Below are positions 36,207-47,096 of a stretch of 64,000 nucleotides of DNA, in pieces. This DNA comes from an uncultured Pseudomonadales bacterium (GTDB lineage Bacteria; Patescibacteriota; Microgenomatia; UBA1400; Chazhemtobacteraceae). The number at the start of each line of letters is the position of its first letter. Positions within the stretch are counted from its first letter, which is position 1. The notes beneath the pieces were generated by a model. That model saw only the letters and a list, made by a program, of their open reading frames with translations. It was not told the origin of the DNA and ran no database searches. The stretch is from NCBI GenBank assembly GCA_964618725.1, contig CAZUBK010000002.1:131992-195991 (forward strand), written 5' to 3'. Position numbers and translations under genes: made by a program.

Positions 36207-37424
36207 ATGAAAGATATGGAGAGGAAGTTGTTTGGACGAACCAAGCCGTGGATGATGTTTGTAGGGGCAGGATTATTGGTGGCGGCTTTGGCGGTGGCGG
36301 GAGGGGTGGTGTATGTGAGTAGGCAGCTGGCGACAAAGAGTCAGGAGACGAGGTCGTTGGCAAAATCGGGATGTGACGAGACTTACAGAGTGCAGTGTCA
36401 AGAAAAAGGGTTGAAGTGTCGTGCTGACCTGAATGGTCTGAATTACTGCTCTGGATGTCTTGATGGATACTCTACCTGCAGTTCAGGTAAGTGCTGTAAG
36501 GATAGTGGAGGTGGAGGAGGGAGGGAATGCAAGATCACGAATTGTACTTCTTGTCACACTGCTGGTGGAAGTGAGGTGTGTGATGCTTGTAAATCAGGTT
36601 ATACATCGATGGGTGATCGTTGTCAGAATACTAGCGCTGGGGAATGCCAAGAGGGACAAAAACGATGCAATGAGATTAGTCCTGAGATATGCGAGGAACG
36701 TAAATGGGAGTTCTACGGTACTTATTCTACTTACACCAGCAACCAAGAATGTAGAGAGAAGTATTTGGGGCAGGGCGGGGGAGGTGGATCAACAACCTCA
36801 AGTGGAGGAGGAGGGGGTGGTGGATCAAGTTGTGAGAAGGGACCAGGTCCGTGTTCGGTCTCTTGTGAAAGCGGGGATTCGTTTGATGACAGGACGTGTT
36901 TGTCAACATTTGATTCTTGTGAGCAATGGGCAAAGGAAGCATGTGGAACCGTTGGTTCTGTCCCAAGGACTTTCGGCAATTATGGAGGTGACTCTCCTTC
37001 AGGTGGCGGGTCGACGTCAAGCGGTGGGGGCTACGTTCCGGAAGAGGTGTCAATACCAACGCCGACGCCGATTCAATACTGCATTAATGTCTATTTTTAT
37101 GTAAATCAGGGAGGGGCGTGGACGAAGACAAAAAAGGGCGACTTGGTAGACAGGATACGGATTGGAGATACTATTAGATTGGCGGTAAAACCGGTGGGGA
37201 AGATCACCAGATGGGACAAGGCACGGTTCTTTATCGATAATGATAAGACACTAAAAACAAAGAAGGTAGAGCCAGTAGAGACTGCCTTGGTTAATGAACA
37301 GGGCGAGTTCTACCTTGACTACACGATTCCTTCACCTATTGAGAGTACATCTGTTAGCAAGAAAGGGACGAGTATGAAGTTTGAGGTAAGGGCAGAATTA
37401 TATAGAAACCTAACTAAAAAATGA
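36207..37424 (+). CDS. membrane-anchored cysteine-rich (furin/EGF-like repeat) protein with Gly-rich linkers and conserved C-terminal beta domain
   Basis: N-terminal TM helix. About 30 Cys in CxxC...GY...C patterns, GGGGG linkers, and a C-terminal domain (IRLAVKPV...NEQGEFYLDYT) shared with the 37706 gene. Confidence 0.55.
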   Translation: MKDMERKLFGRTKPWMMFVGAGLLVAALAVAGGVVYVSRQLATKSQETRSLAKSGCDETYRVQCQEKGLKCRADLNGLNYCSGCLDGYSTCSSGKCCKDSGGGGGRECKITNCTSCHTAGGSEVCDACKSGYTSMGDRCQNTSAGECQEGQKRCNEISPEICEERKWEFYGTYSTYTSNQECREKYLGQGGGGGSTTSSGGGGGGGSSCEKGPGPCSVSCESGDSFDDRTCLSTFDSCEQWAKEACGTVGSVPRTFGNYGGDSPSGGGSTSSGGGYVPEEVSIPTPTPIQYCINVYFYVNQGGAWTKTKKGDLVDRIRIGDTIRLAVKPVGKITRWDKARFFIDNDKTLKTKKVEPVETALVNEQGEFYLDYTIPSPIESTSVSKKGTSMKFEVRAELYRNLTKK

Positions 37425-37633
37425 AAAATAAACTTAAAAAAGGACGATTAAAGATGATCTTGACCTCTTTTGGCCTGCTTCTGGTGGCTGGTGTGGTAAT
37501 TGCAGTGGCCCTAAGGGTGGCAGTACCGACATTGATTGCTCCAACAGCGCCAGAAAGTCAACCCGAGGCCGCGGAGGGCTGGAAACATTCGTCAGATTGT
37601 AACGTATCATTCTCAGTAAAATTATCAGAGTAA
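37421..37633 (+). CDS. small membrane protein; paralogous to N-terminus of 38718 gene (MKNK...TM...IAPTAPES)
   Basis: ATGA overlap with the upstream gene. Shares the anchor plus IAPTAPES(Q/K)P segment with the 38718-40184 protein. Confidence 0.4.
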   Translation: MKNKLKKGRLKMILTSFGLLLVAGVVIAVALRVAVPTLIAPTAPESQPEAAEGWKHSSDCNVSFSVKLSE

Positions 37634-37705
37634 TCAAACTGTTGACGTTTACAAATGAAATACCTATCATGAGATGTAGAGACCCGTTTTCGGGTTAGAA
37701 ATACG

Positions 37706-38710
37706 ATGGATCCAGCTGCCCAAGACAACCAACAAACAACAACACTTCCAAACGATGGTTTGGACGACCAAGTGAGACACGGTGATTTGCCGTGGACGGG
37801 TGCGACAGCTCAAGCACCAACAGTATCGACTCCTGGTATGGCTAGTTTGCCACCACTGCCCAAATTGCCTTCCTTACCGACAACACAGGTTCCCGTTCCT
37901 GATGTTTCTGTTCCCAACTCATTTGCGGATACTGGTCTACCTGGACCGCTGGCGGAACCCGAATCACCCCCACCGCCATTACCAGAAGTTGGTGGGCTGC
38001 AAATATCAACGACGACAATACCTGTAGCTCTACCTTCTATGCCTCAAGATGAAGCGGTGACTGGTTTGTCGTCAGTTTCTTCAGGAGGAGGGGCCGGGGA
38101 AGTGACAATGAAGAAAAAGGGGGGCAAGACTGGCCTGGTGGCAGGGATAGCGGCCTTGGTTTTGTTGGTTGGCGCGGCGACAGGAGGGACACTATATATT
38201 TCGGAGCAAACTAGGCAACAAAATGCAGATCTTCAATCGAGGGCATCCTTGGTGCCGGCTTGTCGGGACGGGAGAGATAATGACGGAGATGGGAAGATTG
38301 ACTGTTTGACAGGGGTGGCAGACCCGGGTTGTTTCCCTGATAACAACGGAGGCGGAGGAGCGTGTAATCCCGAAGATGAAAATGAAGTAAATCAAGTGGC
38401 AACTACTCCGACTCAAGAGGAGTTGCTAGCATGTACGGGGGTAGTTCTTTACTGGAAAAACAATACAACTTGGACGAAAGGGACGGCGGAGCAGGTGGCA
38501 ACGAATACGACGACGGGAGAAGCAATTAGATTGGCGGTCAAACCTGTGGATGGGACGGCCTCTGTGGCAAGATTCAGAGTTAACGATGGGGACTGGAGAG
38601 AGTCGACAACAAAGAATGAGCAAGGAGAGTTCTACGTTGAATATACACCGACAACCTTTGAAACATTTAATATAGAGGCACAGATGGGTGCATACGGATA
38701 CGAAGATTAA
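37706..38710 (+). CDS. Pro-rich N-terminal region, internal TM, one MopE-like Cys/Asp repeat, conserved C-terminal beta domain
   Basis: CRDGRDNDGDGKIDC...GCFPD...GGGGACNPED repeat. C-terminal domain IRLAVKPV...NEQGEFYVEYT is paralogous to that of the 36207 gene. Confidence 0.55.
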   Translation: MDPAAQDNQQTTTLPNDGLDDQVRHGDLPWTGATAQAPTVSTPGMASLPPLPKLPSLPTTQVPVPDVSVPNSFADTGLPGPLAEPESPPPPLPEVGGLQISTTTIPVALPSMPQDEAVTGLSSVSSGGGAGEVTMKKKGGKTGLVAGIAALVLLVGAATGGTLYISEQTRQQNADLQSRASLVPACRDGRDNDGDGKIDCLTGVADPGCFPDNNGGGGACNPEDENEVNQVATTPTQEELLACTGVVLYWKNNTTWTKGTAEQVATNTTTGEAIRLAVKPVDGTASVARFRVNDGDWRESTTKNEQGEFYVEYTPTTFETFNIEAQMGAYGYED

Positions 38711-38717
38711 AACTAAA

Positions 38718-40184
38718 ATGAAAAACAAGACTTTACTAGCGGTTATTCTATTTACCTTGGTGGCAGTGGGTGTGGTTTTGGGAATAGTTTTTGTACTACC
38801 AAGATTAACAACAACGGAGGAGTCGATTGCCCCGACGGCTCCTGAGAGTAAGCCAGCAGCATTTACTGAAGCAACACAAAGTGCAACGAGAGAACTGATT
38901 ATTTCTAAGATGTCAAATGAATGTACCTGGACGGGAGAGCAAAGGGATGGGTATGCGGCAGGTTATGCCACTTCTGAGGTGAGTTTTGGAAACTGTACGA
39001 TACTAGGTGGGAGAATAGAATCGGTCCCTCCGATTCCTTCGGGTTGGGTATATGATGACGTCTTGTATCTCTTGGTTGACAACAAGATATTCTCTGGCGG
39101 GGACAAGTCGTTGGCAGGTGCAGGGCTGGCTTTGGGTGATGCGTGGGACTGGACGAAAGTGGTGGGGACAAGACAGAGGAGTCGCCAAAATACGCAGGTT
39201 TGTTACGGCGGAGGTACCTGTGAAGCGCCGGGAACAAGAAATACTGCAGCCGGGAATCCCTCTGGAGCGATCTTGATGGATTTGAGTGCGGCGGTGTCTG
39301 ACTTGTTGGATTCAAGTCTGGATAGTCACACGATTACTGCCTTAGTAACCGGAGATAATAATCCCAGGACGGATTGTCGCATCAGAAATGATTTGAAAGT
39401 AACTCTGGAGCTATCCTGTACCGAGCTAATTCCCGAGTGTCGAGATGGGATAGATAATGACGGAGACAGTAAGATTGATTGTACTGTAGGAGCAGAGGAT
39501 CCTGGCTGTTTCCCAGATGGAAGAGGCGGTGGAGGAGCGTGTAATCCAGAAGATGACTCAGAACTAGATGTCTATCTTCCCGAGTGTAGTGACGGAATAG
39601 ATAATGATAACGACGGTAAGATTGACTGTACCGCGGGAGCTGCCGATCCGGGCTGTTTCCCAGATGGAAGAGGCGGTGGAGGAGCGTGTAATCCAGAAGA
39701 TGACTCAGAACTAGATGTCTATCTTCCCGAGTGTAGTGACGGAATAGATAATGATAACGACGGTAAGATTGACTGTACCGCGGGAGCTGCCGATCCGGGC
39801 TGTTTCCCAGATGGTCATGGAGGAGGTGGCGTTTGCAACGGCCAAGACGATGATGAAGCAGATGCGACACTACAGTGGGGGAATGTGTGTGAAGAGAATT
39901 TGACTTTGGTAGGTGTGACTCCGACAGCCACACCAACACCGACTGCGATCCCTACTCCGACATCTGGCCCAACAGCGACGCCGACGCCAACCAGACCGGC
40001 GGGTGCGCCAACTGCGACCCCTACTCCGACAGTACCAGGTGCGCCAACAAATACACCGACTCCAAGGGCAACAGCGACGCCGACGCCAGTACAGCTTCCT
40101 GAGGCAGGAATAGGGCTACCGACACTGGGTGCTTTAGGTGGAGGAGTAGTGATGATATTACTCGGAGTACTATTAGCGCTTTAG
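38718..40184 (+). CDS. surface protein with three 49-aa MopE-like (CxDGxDNDxDxKIDC) repeats, P/T-rich linker and C-terminal hydrophobic anchor
   Basis: Start placed at MKNKTLL (the second Met avoids overlap). Repeats are ECxDGIDNDxDxKIDCTxGAxDPGCFPDGxGGGGACNPEDDSELDVYLP x3, followed by TPTATPTPT linker and LPEAGIGLPTLGALGGGVVMILLGVLLAL. Confidence 0.6.
   Translation: MKNKTLLAVILFTLVAVGVVLGIVFVLPRLTTTEESIAPTAPESKPAAFTEATQSATRELIISKMSNECTWTGEQRDGYAAGYATSEVSFGNCTILGGRIESVPPIPSGWVYDDVLYLLVDNKIFSGGDKSLAGAGLALGDAWDWTKVVGTRQRSRQNTQVCYGGGTCEAPGTRNTAAGNPSGAILMDLSAAVSDLLDSSLDSHTITALVTGDNNPRTDCRIRNDLKVTLELSCTELIPECRDGIDNDGDSKIDCTVGAEDPGCFPDGRGGGGACNPEDDSELDVYLPECSDGIDNDNDGKIDCTAGAADPGCFPDGRGGGGACNPEDDSELDVYLPECSDGIDNDNDGKIDCTAGAADPGCFPDGHGGGGVCNGQDDDEADATLQWGNVCEENLTLVGVTPTATPTPTAIPTPTSGPTATPTPTRPAGAPTATPTPTVPGAPTNTPTPRATATPTPVQLPEAGIGLPTLGALGGGVVMILLGVLLAL
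39431..39871 (+). repeat. three tandem 147-bp coding repeats; copies 2 and 3 identical over about 150 bp (39514-39814)
   Basis: Direct reading shows ...gatgtctatcttcccgagtgtagtgacggaatagataatgataacgacggtaagattgactgtaccgcgggagctgccgatccgggctgtttcccagatgg... appears twice with period 147. Confidence 0.8.
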
Positions 40185-42501: not shown

Positions 42502-44496
42502 GTGAGTTCGCAAGATCTAACCCTAATACTCCATTCGTATTTACTCGGGCTGGTTTTACAGTTGATAACTTGGCCAGTCGTGTTTAGAGTCTTTCAGAAG
42601 AACCTGGTTGACAAGGGTTGGATGGTGGGAAGGATTTTGGGTTGGCTAGTAATTAGTCTAGTGGCTTGGTGGTTGGGCTTTATGGGAGTGCCAATCAAGT
42701 TAACAATCTGGTTGATGGCAGGAGTGGTGCTGGTGGTGGGGGGATATATGGCTATCAGGGAGAGGATGAGTCTGAGGACGGGACTAAGAGAGGTGTGGGT
42801 GTTTGTTCTCACCGAAGAACTATTATTTCTGCTGGGTTTCTTGGGGCTTAGTTTTATCAGAAGTTTTAACCCCGATATCCTAGATTTGGAGAAATTTATG
42901 GATGCGGGGCTTGTTACTACCTATCTTCGATCGGTGAGTTTGCCGGCCGAAGATATGTGGTTGGCAGGGGAAAAGATAAACTACTATACCTTTGGTCACT
43001 TTATGGGAGCGGTGCAGACGATAATTTGGGGAATTGACTTAGCTTATTCTTACAACTTACTGCTTGGATTGCTGGCGGGATTGACATTGAGTTTGAGTTT
43101 CAGTGTTGTAGTCAATTTAGCAGAGGTTGGGGGAAGGACAATAAAAAAGGAGAAGATGATTTTGGGTGGAATAGTGGGGAGTTTACTAGTGGCAATTGGG
43201 GGAAACTCTCAGACAAGTTGGTTTTTTTTGAAAAACAAAACATTTGAGGGCTATTGGTATGCGGATGCAACAAGATTTATTGAGAACACGATACATGAGT
43301 TTCCGAGTTATAGTTTTGTGGTATCTGACTTACACGCTCATCTGTGGGACCTACCGATTGTGTTGTTATTTCTGCTGGTGCTTTTAATTTGGCAGAAGGA
43401 GATGCAAGAAGAAAAAAAAGAACGGTGGAGTGCTGTAATTGGCGGTTTACTGGGAGTGATGACGATGACCAATACTTGGGACCTGCTTATCTACGGACTG
43501 CTCACCATGATCTTGGGAGGACTACTATTATTTAGGGGGGTAAGTTTAGTGAAACTTTTCAGGGCAGGAATATTGGCAGGGGTCGCATTGCTGGCGGTGA
43601 GTAGTTTATGGTGGATGAATTTTGTGAACATAGGGGAAGGGTGGCGGGTGGTAACGAAGCGCTCACCTTTGTGGCAATTAGTAGTTCTGTGGATGGGACA
43701 TATAGCCTTGAGCGTTGTTGCTTGGTGCTTCAACATTAGGAGACAGAGCAAAAAAGGATATGAATTAAAGAGTTTGATAATAGCGGCAATGATTTTAACG
43801 GCTTTTATGTTGTTGCTTATTCCTGAGTTGGTATATATGAAGGATATTTATCCTAATCATCCTCGGGCAAATACAATGTTCAAGCTAACTTATCAAGCGT
43901 TTGTCTTGATGAGTCTGGTGGCTGGTTGGCTAGTGGTGGAGATACAGGCGGTTAAGTTTAGATGGTGGAAGATTCCCTTAGTCGCAGTTATTGTGGCGGT
44001 CACGGCGTCTTTGCTCGTGTTCCCGTACTTTGGTTACCGAGGTTTCTATGGCGAATTCAAGAAGCTAAAAGGTCTTGATGGATTGAGTTGGTTACAGATG
44101 GAGTATCCCGATGACTACACGGCGATTCTTTGGCTTAAAGAGAACGAGAGGGGTAGACCAGTGATAGTTGAGGCTATAGGGGAAAGCTATACCACTTTCG
44201 GCAGAGTGTCGGTGTTTACGGGGATGCCGACGATACTGGGATGGAGAGTACACGAATGGCTATGGAGGGGTGGATTTGAGATACCGGCTCAAAGAACGGA
44301 AGAGGTGAAGACGATATATGAGAAACCAGAGACAAAAGAGGCAAAAATACTACTGAGTAAATACCGAGTCAAGTACATTTTTGTGGGGAACAAGGAAAGA
44401 GAAGCCTACCAAGAGATTGATGAGGCGGGGCTGAGAAAATTTGGTGAGATAGTCTTTGAGAGAGGGAAGACGCTGATTATCCGTAGATTTGAATAA
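42502..44496 (+). CDS. large polytopic membrane protein, DUF2298/'YYY'-type putative GT-C glycosyltransferase
   Basis: More than 14 predicted TM helices. A C-terminal soluble region ends ...KYRVKYIFVGNKERE, as in the DUF2298 family. Confidence 0.45.
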   Translation: MSSQDLTLILHSYLLGLVLQLITWPVVFRVFQKNLVDKGWMVGRILGWLVISLVAWWLGFMGVPIKLTIWLMAGVVLVVGGYMAIRERMSLRTGLREVWVFVLTEELLFLLGFLGLSFIRSFNPDILDLEKFMDAGLVTTYLRSVSLPAEDMWLAGEKINYYTFGHFMGAVQTIIWGIDLAYSYNLLLGLLAGLTLSLSFSVVVNLAEVGGRTIKKEKMILGGIVGSLLVAIGGNSQTSWFFLKNKTFEGYWYADATRFIENTIHEFPSYSFVVSDLHAHLWDLPIVLLFLLVLLIWQKEMQEEKKERWSAVIGGLLGVMTMTNTWDLLIYGLLTMILGGLLLFRGVSLVKLFRAGILAGVALLAVSSLWWMNFVNIGEGWRVVTKRSPLWQLVVLWMGHIALSVVAWCFNIRRQSKKGYELKSLIIAAMILTAFMLLLIPELVYMKDIYPNHPRANTMFKLTYQAFVLMSLVAGWLVVEIQAVKFRWWKIPLVAVIVAVTASLLVFPYFGYRGFYGEFKKLKGLDGLSWLQMEYPDDYTAILWLKENERGRPVIVEAIGESYTTFGRVSVFTGMPTILGWRVHEWLWRGGFEIPAQRTEEVKTIYEKPETKEAKILLSKYRVKYIFVGNKEREAYQEIDEAGLRKFGEIVFERGKTLIIRRFE

Positions 44497-45088
44497 GCTG
44501 TTGGTGAAGTTTTTCAAAATCCACTAAGTTTCTCTTTTCATACGTAGCAGCCACTTGTGGAATTTCCTCGCGAGCGAGATCTGCCCATCTTTTGGCAATT
44601 AATGAATCCTGATAAGGATCTTCTCTGCGCAGTAGATATTCTATGTAGGGATACCAATATTTGTCGAAGAGTTCTTCAACCATTGGGGCGTGAATTAATA
44701 GAGGGTGAGGAAAGGCAAAATTCCTTTGAGAGATAACTTCTGCATAGACCTTAGCGGCTTTTTGAGGAATACCATACAGCTTCCCCCTTATCAGGTGAGA
44801 TCGTTGATCTTCAAGTAGTTCGTACTTGAAATTTAAATCCAGGTTTTTGACATCTCTGGAAACGTGGATGGTATTGTTGAATCTTTGGGAGACCCTGAAT
44901 TTTAATTGTGCCTTTTTCAACCATGCTGAGAAGAGTAATTGCTTAGATGGGTCTGTTCCCAAATCAAAATCGAGATCGATCGTTGCCATCGGTTTTAGAC
45001 CACGATACACAAGCCAAAGTTGAATCTTGCCCACTTCAATTGGAAGATTATCTAGAGAACTAGCTAATTGTTTTTGTTGTTTGGTCAT
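44477..45088 (-). CDS. hypothetical protein (203 aa)
   Basis: Clean ORF. No motif recognised. Confidence 0.4.
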   Translation of the reverse strand: MTKQQKQLASSLDNLPIEVGKIQLWLVYRGLKPMATIDLDFDLGTDPSKQLLFSAWLKKAQLKFRVSQRFNNTIHVSRDVKNLDLNFKYELLEDQRSHLIRGKLYGIPQKAAKVYAEVISQRNFAFPHPLLIHAPMVEELFDKYWYPYIEYLLRREDPYQDSLIAKRWADLAREEIPQVAATYEKRNLVDFEKLHQQLIQIYG

Positions 45089-45107
45089 AAATTTATTGTC
45101 TCAAAAA

Positions 45108-45132
45108 GAGAAGGGCATCATGAGATGCCCAA
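45108..45132 (-). terminator. intrinsic terminator after small Cys-peptide gene
   Basis: gggcatc-tcat-gatgccc hairpin followed by TTCTCTTTTTG on the minus strand. Confidence 0.5.
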
Positions 45133-45143
45133 AAGAAGAGAAG

Positions 45144-45260
45144 CTACCGTGGTTCATAACCACAAGAATGGCATTTCTTGGCTGATTCCGAGTTGCTGGC
45201 ACTACAGCGAATACAGACCCAAGAACAAATAATGATAACTAGACGAGACAGAGTGTTCAT
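45144..45260 (-). CDS. 38-aa cysteine-rich zinc-ribbon-like peptide (MNTLSRLVIIICSWVCIRCSASNSESAKKCHSCGYEPR), not in ORF track
   Basis: Hand translation. AAGGAG SD 6 nt before the ATG, a consensus promoter upstream and an intrinsic terminator downstream. CxxC-N10-CxxC plus an N-terminal hydrophobic segment. Confidence 0.5.
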   Translation of the reverse strand: MNTLSRLVIIICSWVCIRCSASNSESAKKCHSCGYEPR

Positions 45261-45296
45261 TTAGTTCTCCTTAAATATGAGAGTAAGAATACCGAT

Positions 45297-45325
45297 AGTA
45301 TAAATTACTACTAATAATACGTCAA
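45297..45325 (-). promoter_or_regulatory. sigma70-type promoter TTGACG-17-TATACT for the small Cys-peptide gene
   Basis: -35 at 45320-45325 and -10 at 45297-45302 (minus strand), with a 17-nt spacer. It sits directly after the LCP stop codon. Confidence 0.45.
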
Positions 45326-46402
45326 TTAGCGGGCAAGTTCGTTTTGAATATATTGTTTTAGGGCTTCCCAGTTGTTGTCACGAGCAATGAGGACGTATTG
45401 GCCAAGATAGGGGGTTTTGTTTTTGGGATTCTCAAGGACACCTAGTTCGCCTTTTTCTTTGTCTCCAGTGGTGAGAGGGACGTTTTTGATACTGAGATCT
45501 TTGGCCAGAACGAGACGGGTGAAGGCAGCATATTCGTTATTGGTAATGTCGGTGTCGATATATTGACGATAGAGATTGAAGAGGTCAGCTAGTCTTTGTG
45601 GACTAAGGAGGGTCTTGCTGGAAAGAAGCTTGTCTTTGAAGGCGAGGATAACCTTTTGCTGGCGGGCGGAGCGGGCAAAATCGGTGCCCTCTTCACCTTC
45701 TGCCATTCTGGAACGAACAAATCTGAGGGCAGTTTCTCCATCCATGTGATTTGGACCGGCGTCAAAGTGGAGGAATTGATAACGATCAGATTCGGGGAGG
45801 GCATCTTCTTTGCCGGGAACGGGATACTTGAAGTCATCAAAAGTACGCTCAATTTGGACGTCGATGCCACCAACGAGATCAATAGCTTGCTTGAAGCCTT
45901 CGAAATCGAGGACAAAGGCATAGTGAATGGGAAGACCGATGATCTCGGAGACTGACGACTTGGCAAGAATGAGACCGCCCCCGGCGGGCTTTTTTTGTTT
46001 GCCGTAATAGTAGGCGGTATTGATTTTGGCTTTCATTGAGTCAACCCAAATGTCGCGGGGGAGGGAGAGAATAGAGACCTTCTTGGTAGGATGGTGGAAG
46101 GAGATCACAATGATTGAATCAGTTAAGTCGGCACCTATATGGCCCTCACCACCCCGACCGAGAAGGAGGAGATTGGTGCGGTCGCTGCTGCTGGCAAGAG
46201 TGGAGAGTGGGTCTTTAGCAAAAGAAATGAGAGTTGAGGGGCCGACAAGGAGCTTGCGGAAGAAAAAAGTCAGAGGGGACTTAAAGCTATAGATGAGAGT
46301 AAAGACGAGAAGGACGGAAAGAGCAATTAATCCTGGTTTGAGTAGGTGGGTATAACGGGAGAGGTAACGGCGTAATTTAGAGAAGTCAAAAAAGTCAGTC
46401 AC
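45326..46402 (-). CDS. LytR-CpsA-Psr (LCP) family cell-wall glycopolymer transferase
   Basis: N-terminal TM. LCP core (LLLGRGGEGHIGADLTDSIIVIS...LSLPRDIWV). Confidence 0.8.
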   Translation of the reverse strand: MTDFFDFSKLRRYLSRYTHLLKPGLIALSVLLVFTLIYSFKSPLTFFFRKLLVGPSTLISFAKDPLSTLASSSDRTNLLLLGRGGEGHIGADLTDSIIVISFHHPTKKVSILSLPRDIWVDSMKAKINTAYYYGKQKKPAGGGLILAKSSVSEIIGLPIHYAFVLDFEGFKQAIDLVGGIDVQIERTFDDFKYPVPGKEDALPESDRYQFLHFDAGPNHMDGETALRFVRSRMAEGEEGTDFARSARQQKVILAFKDKLLSSKTLLSPQRLADLFNLYRQYIDTDITNNEYAAFTRLVLAKDLSIKNVPLTTGDKEKGELGVLENPKNKTPYLGQYVLIARDNNWEALKQYIQNELAR

Positions 46403-47096
46403 AGGAGACTATTTTAGCAAAGTTGTGAGGATCAAGAGAAGCCGTACCAACGATAAAGCCGTCGAGGTACTCTTGTTCCAGGAAACTGGCGACATTCTCA
46501 GGAGTAACTGAGCCGCCATAAAGGACGGGGCAGGTTTTACCGGCCAGCATCTTTATCTTAAAGGCGATTTCATTGGCGCGTTTGGGGCTTTCTGGTTTGC
46601 CAGTACCGACAGCATCAGCTGGTTCATAAGCAAAGATGAGATTACTGAGGTCGAGAAGCTCGTGTTTGAGAAGAGTAATTTGAGACTCAAGATATGGAGT
46701 ATCGAGACAGACAATGGGAATGATGGAGGAATTGGTGAGGAGACGGGCCTTGGCGGCGACGTCTTTGTCGGTATCACCAAGGTGAAGTCTCACCTCAGTA
46801 TGTCCGAGAAGGCAGTAATCAACGAGGTCCTGGATTTGGGGAACGCCGACTTGGCCGGTAAAGGAGCCTGTGGCGTAGGAGGAGACGTTTTGGGCGGCAA
46901 GAGGGTAGGAGGAGTGTTCTTTGAGGTAGCTTAGGAAAGGGAAACTCGGAGCAAGAATAATGCGGTGGTCGGGATTGGGAGCGGGACAGAAGTGTTTGAG
47001 CCAGGAGTCGAGATCGGAAAGAGTAAGATGTTGCTTAAAATTGGCGAGGAAGTACTTCATAGATAGAGTGTAACACGTCAGGACGCTCCTTGACAT
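46395..47096 (-). CDS. tpiA: triosephosphate isomerase
   Basis: TIM motifs (catalytic His in LLGHTEVR, AYEPADAVGTGK, YGGSV). 233 aa. Confidence 0.85.
   Translation of the reverse strand: MSRSVLTCYTLSMKYFLANFKQHLTLSDLDSWLKHFCPAPNPDHRIILAPSFPFLSYLKEHSSYPLAAQNVSSYATGSFTGQVGVPQIQDLVDYCLLGHTEVRLHLGDTDKDVAAKARLLTNSSIIPIVCLDTPYLESQITLLKHELLDLSNLIFAYEPADAVGTGKPESPKRANEIAFKIKMLAGKTCPVLYGGSVTPENVASFLEQEYLDGFIVGTASLDPHNFAKIVSCD

Follow-up and report, generated by a model that had tools for sequence, protein, structure and literature searches.

A 38-codon gene missed by gene callers encodes a predicted zinc-ribbon micro-protein and is linked to an orphan gene in a Patescibacteria-type bacterium

Results

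A short gene between the LCP and DUF2298 genes

The window, by which we mean the whole 64-kb stretch of DNA that was analysed, carries on its minus strand a 38-codon gene followed by a gene for a 203-aa orphan protein. The two genes are flanked by an LCP-family gene (PF03816) upstream and by a convergent DUF2298 membrane-protein gene downstream, and the wider neighbours are TIM, UvrD, FemAB and amine oxidase genes. The 38-codon gene, including its TAG stop, occupies positions 45144..45260 (minus strand; ATG at 45260, TAG at 45146..45144), has an in-frame TAA immediately 5' of its ATG, and encodes a product of 4.2 kDa, MNTLSRLVIIICSWVCIRCSASNSESAKKCHSCGYEPR. The whole unit, from promoter-like hexamers to a T-run, spans 45325..45103 of the minus strand. 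An earlier note on this DNA had listed a promoter, an AAGGAG sequence, a 38-codon ORF and a GC hairpin with a T-run between the LCP gene and a hypothetical gene, and all of these parts are present. Two of its counts are corrected here: the peptide contains five cysteines (12, 16, 19, 30 and 33) rather than six, and, with 36 nt separating the -10 hexamer from the ATG, the leader measures about 30 nt and not about 40 nt.

The -35-like hexamer TTGACG (45320..45325, minus strand) lies directly 3' of the TAA stop of the LCP gene, which ends at 45326 on the same strand, and a 17-nt spacer separates it from the -10-like hexamer TATACT (45297..45302, minus strand). This pair matches at 10 of 12 positions and is the joint-best, with one other 10/12 site, of the six promoter-like sites found in 44000..46500. 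Given that six sites were found in these 2.5 kb compared to 3.3 expected, the promoter-like match by itself is within chance and is not significant. The Shine-Dalgarno sequence AAGGAG (45267..45272, minus strand) lies 6 nt 5' of the ATG. High expression of the peptide gene is a reasonable guess from these signals.

Among ORFs of 20-120 codons in all six frames of the 64-kb window, the peptide ORF is the sole carrier of a CxxC-N(6-25)-CxxC pattern. The earlier note described it as absent from the ORF track. Gene callers also skipped it in L039, where this genome was assembled independently, and its 38-codon orthologue in a distant relative (L037) is likewise uncalled. The assembly of SRR12113420 contains an identical copy of the locus. 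An exact-product look-up of the 38-aa peptide found no called gene anywhere, and an Rfam search of the whole window, the peptide unit included, found no family at gathering score.

Two further features of the window were observed. All 2-kb bins of positions 1-64000 have a positive GC skew (0.11-0.38), so that cumulative GC skew rises monotonically despite the presence of genes on both strands. At E up to 1e-5, no Pfam family matched any of three consecutive large ORFs (405, 334 and 498 aa) at 36207-40184 on the plus strand.

Homologues of the peptide and evidence for purifying selection

The peptide family has three known members, in the window, in L037 and in L036, and the first two of these are copies of a cassette with the 203-aa gene. 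The L037 member, found on a Logan contig, is a 38-codon ORF (MGSLIKRFVIFASWVCVRCSATNQDSSKKCHSCGYEPK) directly upstream of a homologue of the 203-aa protein. The whole promoter-peptide-terminator unit, whose conservation in relatives had been proposed as a check, recurs in this divergent contig. Promoter-like hexamers at the equivalent place, read by eye, are TTGCTA-17-TATTAT preceded by TG, a ribosome-binding site (AAGGA) lies 7 nt 5' of the ATG, and a hairpin with a T-run follows.

The window and L037 peptide ORFs align without gaps at 61% nucleotide identity; protein identity is likewise 61% over the full length and rises to 81% in residues 13-38. Over codons 13-38, pS is 0.99 (saturated) and pN is 0.15 (Nei-Gojobori). 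Differences at the first, second and third codon positions number 4/4/18 over codons 13-39, the stop included, and 11/10/25 over the whole ORF. The sense frame is the only frame that is open in both sequences over the length of the ORF. Because the protein is conserved while synonymous sites are saturated, the peptide ORF is, on the evidence of this alignment, a translated gene under purifying selection.

The third family member, P0001 of L036, was found by searching 1.84 billion representatives exhaustively with phmmer (E 2.3e-7). It is a free-standing protein of 42 aa (MFSQNNLVKQLLSILSSWICVRCNATNPDNAEVCHVCGYKPK) that is 46% identical to the window peptide over its full length, and its gene has its own AAGGAG. 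The matches in this library are mostly multi-repeat proteins with the RanBP2-type motif. The context of P0001 differs from that of the window, with no 203-aa homologue beside it, and a profile comparison between the 203-aa family and the 233-aa protein upstream of P0001 found no relationship. Since P0001 sits without a 203-aa homologue, the predicted zinc ribbon can function without this partner. One gene upstream of P0001, at 1528-1674 on the plus strand of L036, is a second small CxxC...CxxC ORF, a called gene of 48 aa that has weak zinc-ribbon matches only.

Cysteine pattern and zinc-ribbon profiles

The predicted zinc-ribbon core, residues 13-38 (45147..45224, minus strand), reads SW-x-C-x2-C-x3-N-x6-C-x2-CGY-x-P. 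Thirteen of its residues are invariant in the three members: S13, W14, C16, R18, C19, A21, N23, C30, H31, C33, G34, Y35 and P37. The CxxC-N10-CxxC arrangement noticed earlier is therefore conserved as the pairs C16-x2-C19 and C30-x2-C33. The homologues have Ala or Ser in place of Cys12, so the cysteines that matter are the other four, and C16, C19, C30 and C33 are the predicted Zn ligands.

The proposal that this is a small zinc-ribbon protein is supported by the amino-acid conservation and by profile matches of the conserved residues, although all of these matches are sub-threshold. PF13240 (Zn_Ribbon_1) matches residues 16-36 of the window peptide with 21.4 bits (E 2e-4), below the gathering threshold of 25; all three members match it at E 2e-4 or better, and the best at E 3.7e-6. 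The match to PF00641 (RanBP) is 18.1 bits (E 1.6e-3), below the gathering threshold of 27, and DZR (PF12773) is a further sub-threshold match. The peptide is not caught by any curated family above threshold. An AF2 model of the peptide was helical; it was judged not credible because it came from a two-sequence alignment with no metal and has a pLDDT of 72, and it gives the zinc ribbon no structural support.

The RanBP2-type PROSITE motif is W-x-C-x(2,4)-C-x3-N-x6-C-x2-C, and the peptide matches it exactly (W14-V-C16-IR-C19-SAS-N23-SESAKK-C30-HS-C33). As in RanBP2-type fingers, a Trp stands at position -2 relative to the first Cys of the motif and an Asn follows the second. RNA-binding RanBP2 fingers carry aromatic/Arg residues and ubiquitin-binding ones carry a T-F motif; the peptide has neither. 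With Zn_Ribbon_1 and DZR domains it shares two CxxC knuckles and a CG after the last Cys pair. Those domains are usually the N-terminal parts of larger membrane proteins, whereas in the peptide the ribbon is the whole protein. Such domains, for example those of ZitP and GltJ, act as protein-protein interaction modules in bacteria (PMC11135422).

One-domain zinc-finger micro-proteins are known from Haloferax volcanii, where they are shorter than 70 aa, have two CxxC pairs, are often missed by annotation, and have diverse and mostly unknown functions (Nagel et al. 2019; PMC6562870). At 38 aa, and with two CxxC pairs that are invariant in three homologues, the peptide appears to belong to this known kind of protein, and it shares with the Haloferax volcanii set its size, its single predicted zinc-finger domain and its missed annotation. 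It differs from that set in that its host is a Patescibacteria-type bacterium and its gene is linked to the orphan 203-aa gene. HVO_0416 matches the peptide at E 0.28 only, which shows no sequence tie to a characterised micro-protein.

The hairpin and the downstream 203-aa gene

The peptide gene is separated from the 203-aa gene by an intrinsic-terminator-like hairpin with a T-run (45103..45130, minus strand). The hairpin, GGGCATC-TCAT-GATGCCC at 45130..45113, has a 7-bp stem with five GC pairs and a 4-nt loop, and it is followed by the T-run TTCTCTTTTT at 45112..45103. It folds with -14.3 kcal/mol (z = -3.6 compared to shuffles), and its GC-rich stem-loop followed by a U-run makes it a putative intrinsic terminator. 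The hairpin at the same place in L037 has the same stem and a T-run, and folds with -16.3 kcal/mol. The GGGCATC/GATGCCC stem occurs once in the 64-kb window. Although the adjacent ORF is saturated at synonymous sites, the window (45113-45130) and L037 (284-301) have an identical stem, with different loops. Conservation of the stem as sequence, without covariation, hints at a role beyond termination, for example as a protein or RNase site.

The gene for the 203-aa orphan protein (44477..45088, minus strand) has its ATG 25 nt after the hairpin and no recognisable promoter or Shine-Dalgarno sequence of its own. Among 5.8 billion proteins, this one has just two homologues; one of these, on L037, is encoded directly downstream of the peptide orthologue and is the only homologue with upstream sequence. 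The 203-aa protein matched no Pfam, NCBIfam or PADLOC family, and is weakly similar to uncharacterised phage proteins only (phrog_2483, E 3.6e-4; BFVD, E 4.4e-3). In its AF2 model (pLDDT 75) the N-terminal half is alpha/beta and the C-terminal half is helical; Foldseek comparisons of this model found no significant match in the PDB and, in BFVD, only the weak similarity to uncharacterised phage proteins. In L037, the homologous gene (approximately 296-922) has a TATACT 7 nt before its likely ATG at 323, compatible with a leaderless transcript. The called start there is an ATG within the hairpin, and the call is probably too long by nine codons.

A two-gene insertion

The peptide and 203-aa genes lie in a segment of about 830 bp (44497..45325, minus strand) between the convergent LCP and DUF2298 genes. 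Relatives of the LCP gene were found in "Patescibacteria group" MAGs and in Candidatus Chisholmbacteria, which places the window in an uncultured bacterium of the Patescibacteria/CPR type. In the loci of the relatives with LCP proteins 59-66% identical to that of the window (L040-L045), the LCP gene abuts or overlaps the convergent DUF2298 gene in all six cases, and none of the six contains a homologue of the peptide or of the 203-aa protein. In two of these loci, which are a single sequence obtained from two sources, the genes are arranged UvrD-TIM-LCP as they are in the window. Because the six loci lack both genes, the segment is an insertion in the window lineage. LCP-anchored scans of genome and metagenome contigs covered a further 35 loci with LCP identity of at most 50%, and found no homologue of either protein. 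In L037, the gene pair has different neighbours, a 427-aa orphan and a PP2C phosphatase. Since the same pair sits beside different genes in the two genomes, the peptide and 203-aa genes travel together, a linkage that rests on n = 2.

No convincing mobility signature or mobility genes were found at the insertion borders, and scans of IMG/VR with the 203-aa profile and a degenerate peptide pattern found nothing. An imperfect 15-nt direct repeat (TTTGAATAAGCTGTT / TTTGAATATATTGTT, 12/15 identical) at 44488-44502 and 45343-45357 brackets the insertion, with one copy at the DUF2298 stop and one inside the LCP 3' end; it may be an insertion relic or may have arisen by chance. On the other side of the LCP gene, the TIM (triose-phosphate isomerase) gene (46395-47096, minus strand) overlaps the LCP start by 8 nt. 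TIM is also upstream of LCP in L044 and L045, and L040-L042 have small unrelated opposite-strand ORFs in its place, which constitutes a second synteny difference in this block.

Discussion

Our preferred interpretation, to which we assign as a whole a probability of roughly 0.55, is that the ORF is a translated small gene for a micro-protein with a one-Zn2+ ribbon, and that it forms a cassette with the gene for a 203-aa partner. The product most likely would fold round one Zn2+, held by Cys16, Cys19, Cys30 and Cys33, into a C-x2-C-x10-C-x2-C ribbon of the Zn_Ribbon_1 / RanBP2 / archaeal-L40e class, with an N-terminal segment of approximately 12 residues, hydrophobic to amphipathic, ahead of the ribbon. 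The peptide gene would be transcribed from a sigma-70-type promoter of its own and translated from a strong ribosome-binding site, with the stem-loop as a terminator behind it, and the two genes would constitute a two-gene cassette inserted between LCP and DUF2298 in the window lineage. We infer that the micro-protein is a zinc-dependent binding module, which may serve as a small subunit, adaptor or regulator of the 203-aa protein. The hairpin may halt most transcripts, yielding much peptide and little of the 203-aa partner, whose gene would then be expressed mainly through read-through. The position of the hairpin between the genes could equally mean that the two are expressed independently.

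The closest likeness among proteins of known structure is to archaeal L40e. In a search of 177,635 PDB sequences, L40e chains were the best matches, with an E value of 4e-6 for the single sequence that sharpened to 2.5e-9 for a three-sequence profile. The next family in the profile search, RanBP2-type fingers, was at E 0.045, which puts L40e seven orders of magnitude ahead of RBM10 or Nup153 with the profile. The L40e model NF003161 is the best NCBIfam match for all three members (28.7 bits for the window peptide, 29.1 for L037 and 35.7 for P0001), none of which reaches the equivalog cutoff of 54 bits. Two control zinc-ribbon proteins, taken from the match list, match L40e far more weakly (E 3e-3 to 0.3), so the L40e likeness is partly generic to the ribbon class and is clearly stronger for the peptide family. 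Archaeal L40e and eL40 (4v6u_Bg, 4v4n_Ag, 6skf_Bj) have the same C-x2-C-x3-N-x6-C-x2-C spacing as the peptide and align with it in a 27-residue ungapped match, I..(W/Y)VC(I/L)RC.A(S/T)N...AKKC..CGY. Like L40e, the peptide is predicted to be a small single-domain protein of the C4 zinc type.

These matches favour an alternative in which the peptide, as an L40e-like micro-protein, would bind RNA or the ribosome on its own, the 203-aa gene being a mere neighbour. The occurrence of P0001 without a 203-aa partner, and its JGI name, "ribosomal protein L40E", point the same way. However, at 28.7-35.7 bits the scores fall well short of the cutoff, and the peptide differs from L40e in most of what surrounds the ribbon. 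L40e chains are 45-52 aa long and their match to the peptide ends at residue 35-37; L40e has a basic C-terminal tail of about 14 residues, whereas the peptide ends two residues after CGY. The N-terminus is hydrophobic in the peptide and charged in L40e, and other residues take the place of the basic ones beside the L40e knuckles (CSWVC for KKYVC and HSCGYE for RKCGYK). With a net charge of +3 and a pI of 8.8 (the members range from +2 to +4), the peptide has far fewer basic residues than L40e. Moreover, unlike a core ribosomal protein, its gene is bacterial and sporadic and lies in an insertion that is missing from the closest relatives found. We consider this alternative possible but unlikely. 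The stricter proposal that the peptide is an L40e orthologue was rejected on the grounds of the score below cutoff, the absence of the basic tail, the weakly basic composition and the sporadic distribution. A search of the literature on L40e-like or RanBP2-like micro-proteins in Patescibacteria found nothing specific.

It is quite unlikely, in our view, that the cassette is a selfish or defence-type pair, for example a toxin-antitoxin-like system in which an abundant ribbon protein neutralises or regulates a 203-aa effector. This idea draws on the compact two-gene insertion in otherwise conserved synteny, the patchy distribution and the different context in L037, on the small gene being upstream with a strong promoter, and on the weak similarity of the 203-aa protein to phage proteins. 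Against it, the peptide, the 203-aa protein and the L037 homologue of the latter matched no PADLOC-DB family at E up to 1, no Pfam toxin or antitoxin domain was found, and type II modules do not typically have a terminator between their genes. The absence of convincing flanking repeats or mobility genes, and the empty result from IMG/VR, also argue against it.

A somewhat more doubtful alternative is a membrane-associated micro-protein, whose N-terminal segment would hold the ribbon to the cytoplasmic face of the membrane, where it would modulate a membrane protein. The segment LVIIICSWVCI is strongly hydrophobic (Kyte-Doolittle mean 3.05 over 11 residues and 1.59 over 19), and the neighbouring LCP and DUF2298 genes are cell-envelope genes. 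In addition, ribbons of the PF13240 type are often found joined to a membrane protein, as is the ZnR domain in ZitP and in GltJ (PMC11135422). However, the hydrophobic N-terminus described in the earlier note, although real in the window peptide over some 11 residues, is not conserved in the homologues, which have 19-residue means of 1.26 and 1.09. The stretch is also too short for a bilayer and includes the predicted Zn ligand Cys16. Because the cassette is an insertion and its neighbours in L037 differ, the envelope genes are not conserved partners.

The remaining alternatives fare worse. It had also been suggested that the peptide could be secreted or modified. A secreted peptide or RiPP precursor would have the N-terminus as its signal or leader and the Cys/Ser-rich C-terminus as its modified core, and the small size, the richness in Cys, Ser and Thr, and the hydrophobic N-terminus followed by an SAS motif are in keeping with this. 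We find it very improbable, however: the putative signal region holds the invariant residues W14, C16, R18 and C19, the spacing of the cysteines and the residues beside them agree with zinc-ribbon profiles, Cys12 is variable, and the N-terminus of P0001 is polar and amphipathic. Within approximately 8 kb there are no genes for radical-SAM, LanB/C/M or YcaO proteins, for proteases or for export. A Sec signal peptide or lipoprotein was likewise rejected, the Ile at -1 of Cys12 not being lipobox-like and the would-be h-region being not variable but occupied by invariant residues. Least credible of all is a non-coding small RNA or chance ORF, for which the short stand-alone transcription unit of about 190 nt and its conserved terminator stem could be cited: at 61% nucleotide identity to L037 the changes pile up at third positions while the protein is kept, the opposite of what the earlier note expected of an sRNA, a strong Shine-Dalgarno sequence stands at the correct distance in both genomes, and no Rfam family matches, so that the substitution pattern excludes non-coding RNA as the sole role, although the transcript may have a second, RNA-level role beside coding.

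Some Patescibacteria-type bacteria live on archaea. A long shot, which would cut across the readings above, is that the peptide is a trimmed archaeal eL40 that was acquired by a Patescibacteria-type lineage and still docks on the ribosome or rRNA, alone or with the 203-aa partner. If this were true, it would be a case of a bacterium using an archaeal/eukaryotic-type ribosomal protein module. Otherwise, the L40e resemblance is a curiosity, and the peptide is an ordinary zinc-ribbon micro-protein and an ordinary example of the small genes that annotation misses.

Under our preferred interpretation of a zinc-ribbon micro-protein encoded in a cassette with the 203-aa gene, the three sequences define a small, previously undescribed family of 38-42 aa with a hydrophobic or amphipathic N-terminus and a predicted L40e-like C4 ribbon; no paper describing this family was found. 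The tie between the family and the orphan 203-aa protein provides a handle on both unknowns. A conserved gene of fewer than 40 codons that is under selection was missed by gene callers in three independent assemblies, and it falls in a group of bacteria with tiny genomes, where every gene counts.
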